Shown here: positions 34,879 to 48,773 of the stretch, in pieces | How the letters are laid out: each line of letters starts with the position of its first letter | Position numbering within the stretch: position 1 is the first letter of the stretch | From: an uncultured Candidatus Rokubacteria bacterium | GTDB taxonomy: Bacteria > Methylomirabilota > Methylomirabilia > Rokubacteriales > CSP1-6 | DNA length: 64,000 bases | Assembly: GCA_963789955.1 (NCBI GenBank) | Contig: CAWBMV010000034.1 | Span: 640,001-704,000, forward strand | Reading direction: 5' to 3' | Program-made: the position numbers and the translations under genes | Notes under the pieces: model-generated | Database searches by the model: none | What the model was told of the DNA's origin: nothing | Seen by the model: only the letters and a program-made list of their open reading frames with translations

Positions 34879-35315
34879 GCCGCGAGTATCCGGACTATCC
34901 GCGGGTCGGCGTCGGCGCCGTCATCCTCCACGAGGACAAGGTGCTGCTCGTGCGGCGCGGCAAGGCGCCGTCGTTCGGCAAGTGGAGCCTGCCCGGCGGT
35001 CTCGTCGAGCTCGGCGAGTCGACCAAGGAGGCCATCGAGCGCGAGATCCGCGAGGAGTGCGGGATCAAGATCCGCGTCGTCGACGTGGCGGGCGTCATCG
35101 ACCGCGTCGTGAAGGATGACGCGGGTCGCGTCCGCTATCATTACGTGCTGGTGGATTACCTGGCGTATCCCGATTCGCTGGACGTCGAGGCGGGCGACGA
35201 TGCCGCCGAGGCGCAATGGTTCGAGATCGGCCGCCTGGCCGAGCTCGACACCACCCAGGGCCTCCTGGACATGATCCGGCGAGCCGAGACGCTGAGAGGA
35301 GGAACGCGCGGGTGA
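34875..35315 (+). CDS. NUDIX hydrolase
   Basis: Nudix box GGLVELGESTKEAIEREIREECG. Confidence 0.9.
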   Translation: MSREYPDYPRVGVGAVILHEDKVLLVRRGKAPSFGKWSLPGGLVELGESTKEAIEREIREECGIKIRVVDVAGVIDRVVKDDAGRVRYHYVLVDYLAYPDSLDVEAGDDAAEAQWFEIGRLAELDTTQGLLDMIRRAETLRGGTRG

Positions 35316-36797
35316 AAGTCGACATCGTCACCAAGCGACTCGAAGAGGTCCCGGCCGACGCGCTCGTGGTCGGTCTCCACGTCGGCGAAACGAAGCTGCC
35401 GGAGCGTCTGGCGCGCCTCGATCGCGCGGCGCAGGGGCAGCTCAAGCGGGTGCTCGACGCCGAGAAGTTCTCAGGGAAAGCCGGCCAGGTGACGCACGCG
35501 CACGCCGACGGACGGCGCATCGTCGTCGCCGGGCTCGGCCCGCGGGCCGAGGCGAGCTCCGAGGTTCTGCGCCGGGCGGCGGCGGCGGCGGTGCGCCGGG
35601 CCCGCGATCTCGGCGCGCGCACGGTGGCCGCCGAAGCTCCTCGGCGATCGGCTCACCGCGCGCCAGCGCGCGCAGGCCGTCGTGGAGGGCGCGATTCTCG
35701 GCACGTACCACTTCGACCGGTACAAGCGCGAGAAAGCCGAGAGGATCGTCACCGAGCTCCGCCTGGTCGAGCCCGACGCGCGCCGCGCGCGCGAGGCCAA
35801 GGACGGCATGCGACGAGGGGAGAGCTTCGCGCTGGCCACGGCGTTCGCGCGCGACCTGATCAACGCGCCCGCCAACGATCTGCACCCGACCGATCTCGCG
35901 CGCGCCGCCACCGAGCTGGGGAAAGAGTCGCGCATCGAGGTCAAGGTGTTCGAGCAGGCCGAGTGCCAGAAGATGGGGATGGGCGCGTTTCTCGGCGTGG
36001 CCGCCGGGAGCGAGCAGCCGCCGAAGTTCATTCACCTGACCTACAGCCCGTCCGGCCGGCCCGCCGCGGGGCGCAAGCGCAAGAAGATCGTGCTCATCGG
36101 CAAGGGCATCACGTTCGACTCCGGCGGGCTCGACCTCAAGCCCCCCGACGGCATGCTGCGCATGAAGTACGACATGGCCGGCGCCGCGGCCGTGCTCGGC
36201 ATCATGCACGCGCTGCCCGCGCTCAAGCCCGCCGCCGAGGTCCACGGACTGATCGCGGCGACCGAGAACATGCCGTCCGGCTCGGCCATTCGTCCGGGCG
36301 ATGTGCTGAGGGCCATGAACGGCACCACGATCGAGATCGGCAACACCGACGCCGAGGGGCGCCTGACCCTGGCCGACGGCCTGTGCTACGCGAACACGAA
36401 CATCCAGGCCGACGAGATCATCGACATGGCGACCTTGACCGGCGCCTGCGTCATCGCGCTCGGCCAGCTCTGCTCGGGGCTCATGGCGAACAACCAGCCG
36501 CTGGCGAATCGCCTCATGAAGGCGGCGGAAGCGGCCGGCGAGCGGCTCTGGCAGCTGCCGCTGATCGACGAGTATCGCGACAATCTCAAGAGCGAGGTGG
36601 CCGACCTCAACAACGTCGGTCCGCGCGGCGGCGGCGCCATCACGGCCGGGCTCTTTCTCAAGGAGTTCGCGGGCAAGACTCCGTGGGCGCACCTGGACAT
36701 CGCGGGGCCGGCCTTCACCGAGAAGGACCTGCCACTGGCGCCGAAGGGCGCGACCGGATTCGCGGTGCGTACGGTCCTCACGTACCTGAGCGACTGA
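35312..36797 (+). CDS. pepA: Leucyl aminopeptidase (M17); frameshift near 35637
   Basis: GKGITFDSGG, MKYDMAGAA, NTDAEGRL, DMATLTGA, HLDIAG. Confidence 0.94.
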
Positions 36798-41802: not shown

Positions 41803-42342
41803 ATGAAGACCAAGGTCCGGATCGGCGTGATCATCCTGTTGATCTTCGCGGTGCTCGGCGTGCCCGAGCGCGCGTACGTGGCCCCGGAACGGCCGGACGT
41901 CGTGCCGCCGAAGCCGACCGGCGCGCAGGAGGTCGACGTCGTCGCGGTCATGGTCGATCAAGCCACGCAGCAGCCGACCGTCATGCTCCAGGGCAAGCGC
42001 GACAAACGCTCCGTCGCCCTCGCCATCGGGCTGGCCGAGGCGACCGGAATCGCCGTGCCGCTGCAGGGTGTGACGCCGCCGCGGCCGCTCACCCACGACC
42101 TCTTCCTGACATTGTTCGGCCGGCTCAAGGTGTCGCTCACGCGCGTCGTCATCACCGATCTGCGCGACGACATCTTCTACGCCATCATCTACCTCAACGC
42201 GGGCGGGCCCGAGTTCCAGCTCGACGCGCGCCCGTCGGACGCGATCGCGCTGGCGATCCGCGCGAAGGTGCCGGTGCTGGTCGAGGAGCGCGTCTTCGAG
42301 AAGGCCGGCACCACCGCGCCGCCACGCCGCCCGTCGATCTGA
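41803..42342 (+). CDS. Bifunctional nuclease (DUF151/BFN) family protein with N-terminal hydrophobic segment
   Basis: IGLAEA, RPLTHDL, IFYA.I, DARPSDAIALA; AGGAG SD. Confidence 0.9.
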   Translation: MKTKVRIGVIILLIFAVLGVPERAYVAPERPDVVPPKPTGAQEVDVVAVMVDQATQQPTVMLQGKRDKRSVALAIGLAEATGIAVPLQGVTPPRPLTHDLFLTLFGRLKVSLTRVVITDLRDDIFYAIIYLNAGGPEFQLDARPSDAIALAIRAKVPVLVEERVFEKAGTTAPPRRPSI

Positions 42343-42346
42343 CGCC

Positions 42347-43288
42347 ATGGCCGAGTCCGAGCGAAACGAGAAGGAGTGGGCGCTCCAGCGGCGACTCGAG
42401 GACGTCTTCGTCAAGCTGGGGGAGAAGTACGGCGACCTGACCGGCCGCGTCGAGACGAAGATCAAGTCGACGATCACCTTCGACGACGTCGGCGGGCTCC
42501 GGCAGGCGAAGACCATCCTCAAAGGATTCGCGCTCGCGCTCAGCGAGCCCGACCTCTACCGGCAGTGGGGCATCGAGCCGCCGAAGGGGCTGCTCCTCTA
42601 CGGACCGCCGGGCACCGGGAAATCGAAGCTCGCGCAGGCGCTCGCCACGACGTCGGGCGCGATCTTCTATCACCTGAAGCTCATGAACCTCACCTCGAAG
42701 TTCGCCGCCAACACCGCCGATCTGCTGCAGGAGATCTTGAAGATCGCGATGGCCGAGGGACCCGCGGTGCTGTTCCTCGACGAGGCCGAGGCGCTCTCGC
42801 TCGAGCACCTGTTGCCGCCGCCCCAGGCGCGGGAAGCGAGCGCGCGGCTGGTCGCGGCGCTGTGCGAGAAGCTGGACGCGATGAGCACGACCGAGCGAAT
42901 CCTGGTCGTCGCGTCCACCACGCACACCGATGCGCTCGATCCCGCGCTGGTCGCGCCGGGACGCCTCGACCATCTCATCGAGATCCCGCCGCCCGATCCG
43001 GCGGCCCAGCGCGAAATCCTGGAGCTGATCCGTCTCCGCACGGAGAAGACCGCGGGGCGTCCGCTCTTCGAGAAGATCGACTACGACAAGATCCTGCCGG
43101 TCATGGGGGGCATGAGCGGCGCCGACCTTTCGGTGATCGTCCGGCGCGCCCTCGAGGTGAAGGTGCGCGCGGCGGCCGAGCGACCGGACGCGCCGCCCGT
43201 CTCGACCGACGACCTGCTGGACGCGATCGACAGCTACAAGGGCGTGCGGGGGGTCGTGGAGAAGATTCGCTACGGTCAGTATCTGTGA
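42347..43288 (+). CDS. Single-domain AAA+ ATPase (CDC48/proteasome-ATPase clade) with C-terminal GQYL
   Basis: TFDDVGGL, PKGLLLYGPPGTGKS, LFLDE, LDPALVAPGRLD, SGADL, ends RYGQYL*. Confidence 0.88.
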   Translation: MAESERNEKEWALQRRLEDVFVKLGEKYGDLTGRVETKIKSTITFDDVGGLRQAKTILKGFALALSEPDLYRQWGIEPPKGLLLYGPPGTGKSKLAQALATTSGAIFYHLKLMNLTSKFAANTADLLQEILKIAMAEGPAVLFLDEAEALSLEHLLPPPQAREASARLVAALCEKLDAMSTTERILVVASTTHTDALDPALVAPGRLDHLIEIPPPDPAAQREILELIRLRTEKTAGRPLFEKIDYDKILPVMGGMSGADLSVIVRRALEVKVRAAAERPDAPPVSTDDLLDAIDSYKGVRGVVEKIRYGQYL

Positions 43289-43692
43289 TCGCGTCGACGA
43301 AGATCCGCGTCCGCTACAAGGACACGGACTGCATGAAGGTCGTCTACTACGGCAACTACCTCACGTACTTCGAGGTCGGCCGGGTCGAGTTTCTCCGCCA
43401 GCAAGGGCTCGCGATGTCCCACGTGGATCGGCAGATCCATCTGCCCGTCGTCGAGGCCCTGGTCCGCTACCGCAAGCCGGCGCGACTCGACGATCTGCTG
43501 GAGGTGCGCTGCTGGGTGAGCGAGCGGCGGCGGGCGAGCTTTCGCTTCGCCTACGAGATCCGCAACGAAGAGGGCGAGCCGGTCGCCACGGGATCCACCC
43601 TGCATGCCTGCCTGGACCCGGCGACCAGCGAGATGGTCGCCGTGCCGGCCTGGCTCCTGGAGCGGATGCCGATCGTCGATCAGTCGAAGTAA
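43285..43692 (+). CDS. Acyl-CoA thioesterase (YbgC/FadM, 4HBT family)
   Basis: RVRYKDTDCMKVVYYGNYLTYFEVGR, YRKPARLDD; GTGA overlap with AAA gene. Confidence 0.9.
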   Translation: MIASTKIRVRYKDTDCMKVVYYGNYLTYFEVGRVEFLRQQGLAMSHVDRQIHLPVVEALVRYRKPARLDDLLEVRCWVSERRRASFRFAYEIRNEEGEPVATGSTLHACLDPATSEMVAVPAWLLERMPIVDQSK

Positions 43693-44708: not shown

Positions 44709-45472
44709 AGATCTGGGCGATCTTCAAGAAGGAGATGCGCCTCTACTTCACCTCGCCGGTGGCGTGGGTCGTGTTCACGATCTTCCTCCTGATCGCGGGC
44801 TACTTCTTCTACTCGATCTTCGCGTTCTTCACCTTGGCCTCGATGCAGTCGGCGATGAACCCGCAGATGGGCCGCGACCTGAACGTGACCGACAGCGTCA
44901 TGCGGCCGCTGTTCTCGAACATCAGCGTGATCCTGCTCCTGCTCATGCCGCTGGTGACGATGCGGCTCTTCGCCGAGGAGCGGCGCTCCGGCACCATCGA
45001 GCTGCTGCTCACGTACCCGGTGCGCGACGGGGCCGTGCTGGCCGGAAAATACCTCGCGGCGCTCGGCCTCTACGCGATCATGATCGGGCTCACCCTGCTC
45101 TATCCGGGCATCGTGGTGTACTTCGCGCGGCTCGAGTGGGGCCCGATCCTCACGGGGTATCTCGGGCTCCTCCTGATGGGGGCGACGTTCATCGCCGTCG
45201 GCGTCTTCGCCTCGTCCTTGACCGAGAACCAGATCGTGGCGGCGATCACCACCTTCGGAGCGCTCCTCATCTTCTGGATCCTCGGCTGGAGCGCGGACTA
45301 CGCCGGCGGGACGGCCGGCAAGGTGCTGCAGTTCCTGTCGATCCTGGAGCACAACGACAGCTTCTCGAAGGGCGTGCTCGACACGAAGGACGTCCTCTAC
45401 TATCTGAACTTCACGGTGCTCGCGCTGTTCCTGACCTTGCGCTCGCTCGAGGCCCGCCGATGGAAGGGATGA
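44705..45472 (+). CDS. ABC-2 permease (GldF-like)
   Basis: KKEMRLYFTSP, TMRLFAEERRSGTIELLLTYP, SSLTENQIVA. Confidence 0.9.
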   Translation: MKIWAIFKKEMRLYFTSPVAWVVFTIFLLIAGYFFYSIFAFFTLASMQSAMNPQMGRDLNVTDSVMRPLFSNISVILLLLMPLVTMRLFAEERRSGTIELLLTYPVRDGAVLAGKYLAALGLYAIMIGLTLLYPGIVVYFARLEWGPILTGYLGLLLMGATFIAVGVFASSLTENQIVAAITTFGALLIFWILGWSADYAGGTAGKVLQFLSILEHNDSFSKGVLDTKDVLYYLNFTVLALFLTLRSLEARRWKG

Positions 45473-46993
45473 TCCGGCGGCTGCTCGACTGGGGCGGCTA
45501 TCTCGGGATCGCCGTGCTGGCCTTCGGGGCGATCCTGCCGTTCGTGCGGCCGGAATGGAATCGGTTCCGGTGGATCTTCCTCGCCGTCGGCGTCCTGCTC
45601 GTCCTGGTGTCCTTGCTCGCCCGGGTCGAGGACTATCGCGGGCTCTTCGGCCGGCGCGCGATGAAGTACGGCCTGAACACCGCCGTCGCGGTTGCGCTGG
45701 TGCTGGGCGCGACGGTCGTCGTCCAGGCGCTCTCGTTCCGCCACAGCGCGCGCTGGGATCTCACCGAGAACAAGCGTTTCAGCCTGTCGCCGCAGACCAT
45801 CCAGCTGCTCGGCGGTCTCAAGACCGACGTGAGCGCGGTCGCGTTCTTCCGCAGCGATCAACCCGGCAAGCGGGTGGCCGAGGACCTCCTGAAGCAGTAC
45901 GCCCGCTATTCGAACGGCAAGTTCACCTGGAAGAGCGCCGACCCAGACCGTGAGCCCGGGCTGGCCCGGCGCTACGGCATCGAGTCCTACGGCACGATCG
46001 TGCTCGAGACCAAGGCCAAGTCGGAGAAGGTGCTCGACGCCGAGGAAGAAAAGCTGACGAACGGTCTCGTCAAGGTCACGCGCGAGGGCAAGCGCCTCGT
46101 CTACGTGGTCCAGGGGCACGGCGAGGCCGAGCTCGGGAGCACCGAGCGGCCGGGATTCAGCGAAGCGAAGTCGGCGATGGAAAAGGCCAACTACGACGTC
46201 AAGCCGCTCGTCCTGGCGCGCGCGGGCAAGGTCCCGGACGACGCGACCGTCGTCATCCTCGCCGGGCCGAAGAACGATCTGTTCCCGCCGGAGCTCGACG
46301 CCCTCGACGCGTACCTGGGCCGGGGCGGCAAGGTGCTGGCGATGATCAATCCGTTCCAGAACGAGGGGCTCAAGAAGCACCTCGTGAAGTACGGATTCCA
46401 GCTCGACGATGACCTGGTCGTGGAGCAGAACCCGATCGGGCGCCTCTTCGGAATCGGACCGGAGGTCCCGATCATCCAGCAGTACGACTCGCATCCGATC
46501 ACGCGGGACCTCGCCGGCATCACGACCCTGTTCCCGCTGACGCGCTCGATCACCGCGCTCAAGACCCCGCCGAAGGGCGTGACCGTGCAGACGCTCGCGA
46601 AGACCAGCCCCGACAGCTGGGGCGAGACCAATCGCGCGGATCTTCAGCGCGGCGTGGCGCAGCCCGATCGCTCAGGACTTGAAGGGCCCGCTGGCGGTCG
46701 CGGCGGTCGCGACGATGGACAAGGCGCGGATGGTCGTCTACGGCACGTCCAACCTCGCCGCGAATCAGTTCCTGAACATCCAGGGCAATCGCGACTTCTT
46801 CCTCAACACCGTGAGCTGGCTCGCCGAGGAAGAAGATCAGATCTCGGTCCGTCCCAAGGACGTGAAGCAGACCCCGGTGTTCATGAGCTCGAACCAGGCG
46901 CAGGCCGTCTTCCTCCTGCCCGTCGTGATCCTGCCCGCGCTCGTCCTCGCCGGCGGGATCGTCGCCGTCGTCCGCCGCCGCGCGGCGAACTAG
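45469..46993 (+). CDS. GldG-family ABC auxiliary protein; frameshift near 46670
   Basis: WDLTENKRFSLSPQT, GHGE, LAGP, HPIT, GNRDFFLNTVSWL, C-terminal TM. Confidence 0.85.
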
Positions 46994-47005
46994 TCGGGCG
47001 GTACC

Positions 47006-48773
47006 ATGCGCTGGCAGACGACCGCAGCCCTGGCCGTCATCCTGATCGCCCTGGGCGCCTTCTACTACGTCTACGAAATCCGGCTGGGCCCTGAGCGCGA
47101 GAAGACCGAAGGGCGCAAGGGCCGCGTCTTCACGGTCGAGCCGGCCGACGTCGCGGAGGTGGAGCTCAAACGCGCCGATTCCACGGTCAAGCTCAAGCGC
47201 GCAGGACGACGGCTGGCAGATTCTCGAGCCGGTGAACGCGCGGGGCGACCGCGGCGCCGTCGACGAGACGGTGACCTCGATCGTGACGGCCCGCATGGAT
47301 CGCGAGATCGAGGCCGAGCCGAAAGCGCTCGGCGACTTCGGGCTCGACCGCCCGGCCGCCGAAGCGACGCTCAAGCTCAAGGACGGCAAGCAGATCGGTC
47401 TGGTCCTCGGCGCCAAGAGCCCGACCGGCGTGTGGGTGTACGCGCGCGAGGCGGGCAAGCCGGCGGTCTTCGTGGTCGGCGACTCGGTCCTGCGCGACAC
47501 GACGCGACCGGTCGCCGAGTTCCGCGACAAGACCGTGCTCGCGTTCGAGCAGAAGGACGTGACGGGGCTCGAGCTCGACATGCGCGACGAGAAGATCGCG
47601 CTCGAGCAGGCCGACGGCCGCTGGAAGGTGACGAAGCCGCGGCCGCTGCCGGCGGACGCCGACACGGTGCGCGACTTCCTCGACAAGCTCCGCGCGGCGC
47701 GCGTCAAGGAGTTCGCGGCCGACGCGCCCAAATCGCTGGAGCCGTTCGGCCTCGACAAGCCGGTGCGCCTCGACGTCCAGACGGGGCGCGAGAAGGACCG
47801 CGCGACGAAGACCTTGCTGATCGGGCGCGCCGACCCGGCCAAGAAGGGCGTCTACGCCATGCGGCCGGGCGAGTCGGCGGTGCTGCTGATCCCCGACGAG
47901 ACGTGGACGGCGGTGCCGAAGAACCTCGCGGTCCTGCGCGACAAGAGCGTCGTCGGATTCGATCGCGACAAGGTGACGAAGATCGAGATCGAGAGCCCGA
48001 AGGGCACGGTCACGATTGCCAAGGACGGCGACCGCTGGAAGATCACCGCGCCGCAGGCGCTGGCCGCCGATCAGGTCGAAGCCGGCGCGGTGCTCTTCAA
48101 GCTGCGCGACCTCCGGGCCCAGGCGTTCCTGACCGACGACGCCTCGGGGATCCCGCGCTATCTGGCCAAGCCCACGGTGCGGGTGAACATCACCGAGCAA
48201 GGCGCGTCGGCGCCGCGGACGGTGCTGCTGGCGCCCTCGACCGAGAAGCGCGGCGGCTCGCCCAGCGCCTACGCGGCGGTGGCGGGCCAGGGGCCGGTGG
48301 TGCTGGTCGACGGCAAGGCGCTCGAGGATCTGGGCCGATCGTCCGACGATCTGCGCGACCGCACGCTCATGTCCGGGCTCGAGCCGCGCGACATCAAGCG
48401 CATGCGCGTGCGCGCCGGCGGCCAGACCGTCGTGGTCGAGCGGAGCGGGGAGAGCGACTGGAAGCTGGTCGAGGGCGGAAGCGGCGCCGCGAAGTCCGCG
48501 ACCGTGGACAACCTGCTCTACTCGCTCCGGGCGCTGAAGTGGAAGACGATCGCGGCGCCGACCGGCGACGAGCCGGCCAAGTACGGGCTCGATGCGCCGA
48601 CCTTCGAGGTGACGCTCCTGAAAGCCGACGGCAGCGAGGCCGGCGCGCTGCTGGTCGGAAAGCGCGAGGGCGACCAGGCCTGGGTCAAGCTCAAGACCGC
48701 GCCGGCGATCTACACCGTGGACGTCAAGCAGCTCGGTGAGACGCCGAAGGTCCCGAACGACTTCAAGAGCTGA
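47006..48773 (+). CDS. DUF4340-like repeat periplasmic protein; frameshift near 47205
   Basis: N-terminal TM, repeated W...P...AD...V / FGLD.P / (L/F)RDK units; follows GldG-like gene. Confidence 0.75.

Follow-up and report, generated by a model that had tools for sequence, protein, structure and literature searches.

A candidate 20S proteasome cap in Rokubacteria-type Methylomirabilota: an AAA protein of one module whose C-terminal GQYL motif is conserved

The window analyzed here is a stretch of 64,000 nucleotides from the genome of an uncultured Candidatus Rokubacteria bacterium. One of its forward-strand open reading frames encodes a 313-aa AAA protein with the C-terminus EKIRYGQYL (Table 1), and we use GQYL-AAA as shorthand for this protein and its family. 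Throughout, own order, own class, and other families are relative to the window's genome, which is of a Rokubacteria-type Methylomirabilota, and f4 to f9 and g5 are family and genus labels. A Pfam AAA domain spans residues 82 to 214 (E 3e-27), while the same search returned no OB or coiled-coil family match (PF17758 and PF16450 were absent from GQYL-AAA and both were found in a control ARC) and no match to the BPA domain PF10759, the fold being that of an AAA protein. Since the stop-to-stop frames of several orthologues are just 313 to 316 codons long, there is no hidden N-domain, and the annotated start is real. The original prediction of a GQYL-ending protein with only about 40 residues ahead of the AAA domain, and without the coiled coil and OB domains of ARC, agrees with the ORF, the Pfam search, and these frame lengths. 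The N-terminal 40 residues are family-specific, with R15 invariant and G29 and G33 nearly so among 119 proteins.

Table 1. Features at the GQYL-AAA locus, in window coordinates; residue numbers refer to the 313-aa protein.
Feature	Position	Strand	Basis
DUF151/bifunctional-nuclease-domain gene	41803..42342	+	PF02577, E 3e-34; ends 4 nt before GQYL-AAA start
GQYL-AAA, single-module classic-clade AAA with C-terminal GQYL, candidate 20S proteasome cap	42347..43288	+	ORF; Pfam AAA; model
N-terminal 40 residues: predicted helix 2-28 and short strand 35-38; no OB fold, no Pup-binding coiled coil	42347..42466	+	Model
Walker A GPPGTGKS (86-93), intact	42602..42625	+	K-[T/S] in 80/101 own-order and 18/18 other-family proteins
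Pore loop 1 SKFAAN (117-122), aromatic kept, canonical Gly lost	42695..42712	+	Sequence, alignment
Walker B LFLDE (142-146), intact	42770..42784	+	DE in 82/101 own-order and 16/18 other-family proteins
Sensor 1 region STTH (190-193), Thr for Asn	42914..42925	+	Sequence, alignment
SRH LVAPGRLD (201-208), first Arg to Ala, second Arg (R206) kept	42947..42970	+	Sequence, alignment
Tail KIRYGQYL, where a long predicted helix (287-308) ends; candidate motif for docking on the alpha ring	43262..43285	+	Conservation, model
YbgC-like acyl-CoA thioesterase gene over the GQYL-AAA stop codon (GTGA overlap), probably unrelated	43285..43692	+	TIGR00051 above cut-off

GQYL-AAA scored under the cut-off of all NCBIfam families that it matched. 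The best scores were for PAN (TIGR01242, 169.3 bits against a cut-off of 500) and Cdc48 (TIGR01243, 159.8 bits against 802.65), the latter in keeping with one AAA module rather than an N-domain and two, and the weakest of these was for ARC (TIGR03689, 94.2 bits against 504.75), where a true ARC from locus L057 reached 703. The monomer, predicted from a 49-sequence alignment, had a pLDDT of 91 and a pTM of 0.87. Foldseek searches with this model returned the AAA modules of p97 and PAN (TM 0.73), and VAT and p97 were the best relatives among solved structures. Database labels for GQYL-AAA are generic only, and its named close relatives are from Rokubacteria/Methylomirabilota.

It had been proposed that GQYL-AAA sits in a tight operon between a DUF151 gene and a thioesterase gene. 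The arrangement itself is real, as the short gap and the stop-codon overlap in Table 1 attest, but it is seen in the own order only. A DUF151 gene lies directly upstream for 83 of the 100 own-order proteins with room upstream and for 0 of 17 from other families; the association with the thioesterase is looser, and none of 18 other-family loci matched it. A functional link to DUF151 or the thioesterase is unsupported outside the own order, and the operon gives no functional clue. One singleton record (P0023) is a 467-aa DUF151-AAA fusion. The own-order neighbors (DUF151, thioesterase, MFS, and ABC transporter genes) include no proteasome genes. Of the 7 loci from family f9, 3 have GQYL-AAA in a tail-to-tail order with arc or arc-pup; we take this as a hint only, since the convergent arrangement comes from a single genus and the loci are not independent. 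Near GQYL-AAA in families f6 and f8, on the opposite strand, we observed JAB-like, ThiF/E1-like, and distant AAA genes (L049:4941-6514, L054:4866-5696, and L060:601-1266), which possibly make up a bacterial ubiquitin-like system. A promoter and terminator scan near the GQYL-AAA gene found nothing above chance.

The original prediction had staked itself beforehand on conservation of the tail among orthologues, and we found that GQYL is conserved across the class, being terminal in 69/69 orthologues from own-class genomes at 42-95% identity. These loci were found by whole-protein score, as 29 top matches and 40 picked for divergence among 108 non-self matches. Over all loci examined, many of which are one genome fetched twice, 147 of 149 end in GQYL-stop; of the other two, one runs into a contig edge at GQYL, and the other carries a frameshift. 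The genome contains 48,143 six-frame ORFs of at least 40 aa, only 4 of which end in GQYL, namely, GQYL-AAA, Bpa, and C-terminal fragments from two ARC genes; terminal composition predicts about 0.03 by chance, an expectation that is rough because most such six-frame ORFs are spurious. Column counts were made on an alignment of 119 distinct full-length proteins, all of them with a terminal GQYL. Conservation there peaks in the tail, at a column mean of 1.0 versus 0.67-0.88 elsewhere, although this alignment cannot itself test the tail, being restricted to GQYL-ending rows. K306 and R308-Y309, ahead of GQYL, are also invariant there. The tail codons differ synonymously across orthologues, and the three stop codons are all used. 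Since the downstream genes differ and the tail codons vary, we ruled out that tail conservation is a by-product of overlap with the next gene. A scan for the tail pattern, blind to variant tails, covered 38 of the 64 parts into which the genome collection is divided and returned 116 stretches. Of these, 5 matched by chance, and the other 111 came from the family, as members or as tails of members; the 111 carry mostly Rokubacteria, Methylomirabilota, or NC10 labels, with a few others. A genome scan with the family alignment as query was dominated by matches to Walker A. In one NC10-labelled genome, a 75-codon remnant (L263) has the N-terminus joined to the C-terminal end with GQYL kept, as the result of either an internal deletion or misassembly.

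A further point on which the prediction depended was the presence of 20S and Pup genes, and a full Pup-proteasome gene set was found: the genome encodes arc, dop, prcB, prcA, pafA, pup, and bpa away from the GQYL-AAA gene. The genes arc-dop-prcB-prcA-pafA lie on the same contig as GQYL-AAA, about 145 kb off, and prcA matches TIGR03691 with 330 bits. There is no pup between dop and prcB; a pup whose product ends in GGE lies apart from this cluster (G000:C6:162984-163196, L374), and two relatives have two pup genes each. We also observed a second arc (G000:C20:68153-69731), which like the first is about 62% identical to an outside ARC query, and a third PafA/Dop-family gene (C16:3426-4574) that adjoins a transposase. 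Both arc copies and prcB are frameshifted in this genome, whereas the arc frames of relatives are open. Genes split by frameshifts, among them pepA-like and GldG-like housekeeping genes as well as arc and prcB, occur at 35216-36797 and 45400-48773 of the window and at G000:C34:829762-834136, and the frameshifts in arc, prcB, and the housekeeping genes are probably sequencing indels of the assembly. The ARC copies seen in families f8 and f9 (L057, L170, and L410) end in GHYL, while GQYL-AAA there still ends in GQYL. In PrcA, K52 is invariant in 21/21 aligned sequences, and position 26 is Arg or Lys; K52 and the position-26 residue are described as contacting GQYL in the PafE-20S structure (10.1101/249060).

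Across the own class, protein and profile searches agree that the GQYL-AAA gene is present as a single copy in 109 of 151 sampled genomes; prcA was found in 120 and Bpa above cut-off in 24 of the 151. By hand count, and with related genomes that are not independent, 90 of the 109 carriers have prcA, in line with the anticipated co-occurrence with 20S genes. Among the 19 prcA-negative carriers, 15 have at least one of ARC, Pup, and ligase fragments, the last often located at contig ends, and in the other 4, which are 63-87% complete, the searches for ARC and ligase gave no match either. G009 and G013 of genus g5 (93% and 100% complete) showed no prcA, ARC, or ligase, with one HslV-range match as the only prcB-like hit. 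Both keep GQYL-AAA, Bpa, and Pup, and the absence of their core genes reflects recent loss or a gap that both assemblies share. Family f8 (prcA in 0/6) was considered as a group of proteasome-less carriers and set aside, as assembly breaks are the likely cause, with ARC, prcB-like, and ligase fragments lying at contig ends. Both genomes of family f5 (100% complete) are without GQYL-AAA, prcA, ARC, and ligase. Family f4 has prcA in 18/20 genomes and GQYL-AAA in 2/20, and since it mostly keeps the proteasome without GQYL-AAA, we regard GQYL-AAA as an accessory part. The most distant member, at 38% identity, comes from a Deltaproteobacteria-labelled genome (G151) that has prcA on the contig of GQYL-AAA, two ARC, and three ligase-family genes; one of two genomes of that class carries the gene. 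Some of the genomes counted for the class and used in the alignment are marked unpublished (G031, G040, G067, G090, and G131), and no claim is made on these alone.

The motor of GQYL-AAA had been described as having both Walker motifs intact but a pore loop 1 of SKFAAN, a sensor 1 of STTH, and an SRH of LVAPGRLD, and all of these are as described (Table 1). As a sign of decay, however, STTH alone is weak evidence, since Ser or Thr at sensor 1 is reported as a tolerated AAA+ variant (PMC5039278, PMC12529919). The pore-loop Gly at position 121 is present in 0/101 own-order and 7/18 other-family proteins, and an aromatic residue occupies position 119 in 93/101 own-order proteins. The sensor-1 Asn is found in 10/101 own-order (Ser in 56, Thr in 30) and 14/18 other-family proteins. 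According to PMC12529919 and PMC5039278, p97 uses both SRH arginines as fingers that act in trans, and hydrolysis requires the SRH. We found the first of these arginines in 0/101 own-order and 9/18 other-family proteins and the second in 119/119. Walker A or B is broken in 35/101 own-order proteins, with recurring changes of Thr/Ser to Ala in Walker A and of Glu to Gln, His, or Ser in Walker B, while the motifs are intact in 12/12 aligned proteins of the sister family introduced below. All five catalytic residues (Walker A, Walker B, the sensor-1 Asn, and the two SRH arginines) are kept in 0/101 own-order and 8/18 other-family proteins; three of the five are canonical in the window's protein, which has Thr at sensor 1 and has lost the first SRH Arg. 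That Walker changes are repeatedly tolerated while the tail stays constant suggests that docking is under stronger selection than hydrolysis, and the motor is probably slow or inactive in Rokubacteria. Since Walker A, Walker B, and the second Arg are intact and Ser or Thr is known to occur at sensor 1, some ATPase activity of the window's protein is possible, and it could still hydrolyze ATP slowly.

These residues bear directly on whether GQYL-AAA could be an active, ATP-dependent, and tag-independent unfoldase cap that threads substrates into the 20S core, like a VAT or PAN without its N-domain. We consider this unlikely, as the full catalytic set is missing from every own-order protein, Walker A and B substitutions recur, the pore-loop Gly is gone in 101/101 own-order proteins, and there is no substrate-binding N-domain. 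What speaks for such an unfoldase is the fold shared with the p97 and PAN AAA modules, the retention of both Walker motifs, the aromatic pore residue, and R206 in the window's protein, and the other-family proteins in which the catalytic set is complete and the pore loop is of the KWY type (8/18).

The nearest proteins outside the family form an unnamed AAA family of about 500 aa (P0238, P0404, P0405, P0430, P0458, P0463, P0464, and P0488), which we call the IGF family, as its members carry a C-terminal IGF followed by a variable tail and no GQYL. They have intact motifs and a conserved N-domain of about 200 aa without a Pfam match. Their C-terminal IGF, as we presume, resembles the docking loop of ClpX/ClpA. 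A profile alignment of GQYL-AAA with the IGF family gave an E value of 2e-92 and 43% identity over 272 columns, including a distinctive small subdomain. In this alignment, KIRY of GQYL-AAA falls on SIGF of the sister family (IRY on IGF), which indicates that GQYL was added directly behind the ancestral tail. In trees of AAA modules, built from 41 of 80 rows with the N-terminus and final eight residues of GQYL-AAA removed, GQYL-AAA and the IGF family are joined at 100/100, with the same topology under a mixture model. Together they lie among Cdc48 D2 modules (95/91, mixture model) and apart from ARC, PAN, D1, and FtsH. A clade of GQYL-AAA with ARC is rejected (p-AU 2e-5) by an AU test that covers the family plus ARC without the sister group, a deeper link of ARC to the family plus sister, with its long stem, being outside it. 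Identity between GQYL-AAA and ARC is about 35% over the AAA core. The comparison to a shortened ARC that the original prediction implied was thus wrong on ancestry: the trees, with the IGF family as sister, rule out a truncated-ARC origin and place GQYL-AAA in a separate Cdc48-D2-like lineage, from which it follows that GQYL was gained independently of ARC, either convergently or through the capture of a short segment. When we looked for hosts of the IGF family, one metagenome scan was empty and another filled with Cdc48, and the Atlas returned its own clusters and generic AAA rows.

Ancestry also weighs on the idea that GQYL-AAA works in a mixed or transient complex, as an ARC co-subunit that supplies exposed tails or damps the motor, or as a factor that helps to assemble the alpha ring or plugs it. 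The subunits of mixed rings are usually close paralogues. GQYL-AAA belongs to another, distant lineage, so a mixed ring with ARC counts as less likely, and the absence of GQYL-AAA from most f4 genomes that retain the proteasome speaks against a mixed complex as well. On the other hand, the GQYL of Mpa is described as concealed by its beta-grasp domain, with extra factors proposed (PMC8142254, 10.1101/249060, PMC12288473), and the tail-to-tail loci with arc or arc-pup in f9, as well as the ARC copies ending in GHYL beside GQYL-AAA in f8 and f9, would fit a partnership of this kind. We regard it as improbable.

Our reading of GQYL-AAA as a cap builds on what was observed, namely, a tail that is conserved, proteasome genes in the genome, a lineage separate from ARC, and catalytic residues that have eroded. 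Two traits of GQYL/HbYX-type regulators are present, namely, a conserved free C-terminal GxYx and a cognate 20S core with a pocket lysine in the genome, and a GQYL-based link of GQYL-AAA to the 20S core is very likely. That the tail instead serves outside the proteasome, as a structural end or for another partner of a general chaperone-like AAA, is highly unlikely: it would fit the non-proteasome neighbors of the own order, the few good-quality genomes that keep GQYL-AAA with no core genes found, and a conserved tail that is longer than GQYL (KIRYGQYL) and partly inherited from the IGF motif, but GQYL was added only in a lineage with a GQYL-type proteasome, genomes without core genes keep Pup (5/5 tested) and often Bpa, and the gene fragments seen at contig ends suggest that the assemblies broke there.

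Beyond such a link, we see an even chance that GQYL-AAA is a ring-shaped, Pup-independent 20S cap with little pulling force that sets the state of the gate or competes for alpha rings. Ring formation is suggested by the invariant, trans-acting R206 and the AAA fold of the monomer model, and, by analogy with PafE and Mpa structures, GQYL would insert into the K52 pocket of PrcA. With no coiled coil for Pup and no beta-grasp domain hiding its tails, such a ring would occupy the alpha rings and set the gate, admitting unfolded or adaptor-delivered substrates rather than pulling folded proteins, and it would compete with ARC and Bpa for alpha rings. The other-family members with all catalytic residues may still be ATP-driven caps. 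An engineered PafE ring with six GQYL motifs is reported not to have activated the core of Mtb (10.1101/249060), and a GQYL-AAA hexamer might likewise bind without opening the gate. In the model, five residues follow the last helix of GQYL-AAA, the final three with a pLDDT of 62, and these five may be too short to reach the alpha-ring pocket. More tentatively, and with somewhat more doubt than conviction, we propose that GQYL-AAA is a third, independently evolved GQYL regulator, derived from a Cdc48 D2 module by loss of the N-domain and gain of GQYL behind the ancestral IGF tail. In Rokubacteria, it would then form a ring of pseudo-ATPases, which would gate or block the 20S core or provide ARC with exposed docking tails.

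Compared with known systems, GQYL-AAA resembles Mpa/ARC (TIGR03689) in its classic-clade AAA module, its C-terminal GQYL, and its presence in the same genomes. Unlike Mpa/ARC, it is without coiled coil, OB, and beta-grasp domains, has a separate ancestry and eroding catalytic residues, and is usually encoded outside the proteasome operon, in a genome that has two real arc genes besides. With Bpa/PafE (PF10759), it shares the GQYL tail, a gene away from the proteasome operon, and a likely independence from Pup, but the folds are unrelated, and bpa is a separate gene found in far fewer class genomes (24/151 versus 109/151). Cpa is likewise a Cdc48-related AAA protein whose gene lies outside the proteasome locus and co-occurs with the core. 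It is, however, a full-length Cdc48 homologue, whereas GQYL-AAA is one module plus GQYL; Cpa is further described as having no penultimate tyrosine and as binding even without its last five residues (PMC6017811, PMC6466877). PAN and the D2 module of VAT/Cdc48 give the best sequence, profile, and fold matches, and the penultimate tyrosine is as in HbYX, although GQYL-AAA has no N-domain or D1, falls below the family cut-offs, carries a bacterial-type GQYL rather than HbYX, and does not group with PAN rows in the trees. The IGF family, its closest relative (E 2e-92; 100/100), differs in its N-domain of about 200 aa, its fully intact motifs, and its IGF and variable tail in place of GQYL.

Reviews list three bacterial proteasome regulators (Mpa/ARC, Bpa, and Cpa), all actinobacterial and two of them with GQYL (PMC12288473, PMC6466877). 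In the portions available to us of the literature on bacterial and non-actinobacterial proteasomes, GQYL, Cdc48, and Rokubacteria/Methylomirabilota, no such protein is described, although an entry in some survey table may have escaped us. GQYL-AAA is a real, conserved, and unnamed family that falls outside ARC, Bpa, Cpa, and PAN, yet it bears the features of a GQYL-type 20S regulator, here on a new scaffold. If it acts as one, it would be a conserved fourth bacterial proteasome regulator, bacteria outside the actinobacteria would have regulators of their own, and the docking key would have arisen more than once. If the pseudo-ATPase reading is true as well, a transition from motor to gatekeeper would be preserved stepwise in one phylum. 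Intact and eroded members of the family form matched sets that can be compared directly. Mpa, with its tails hidden by the beta-grasp domain, does not robustly activate wild-type cores in vitro, and the 35-kDa GQYL-AAA, which has no beta-grasp domain, would be a natural test of six exposed GQYL tails. Finally, while contigs from RNA libraries may be DNA, metatranscriptome contigs from four soil or sediment studies cover the GQYL-AAA gene, some of them across both of its neighbors.
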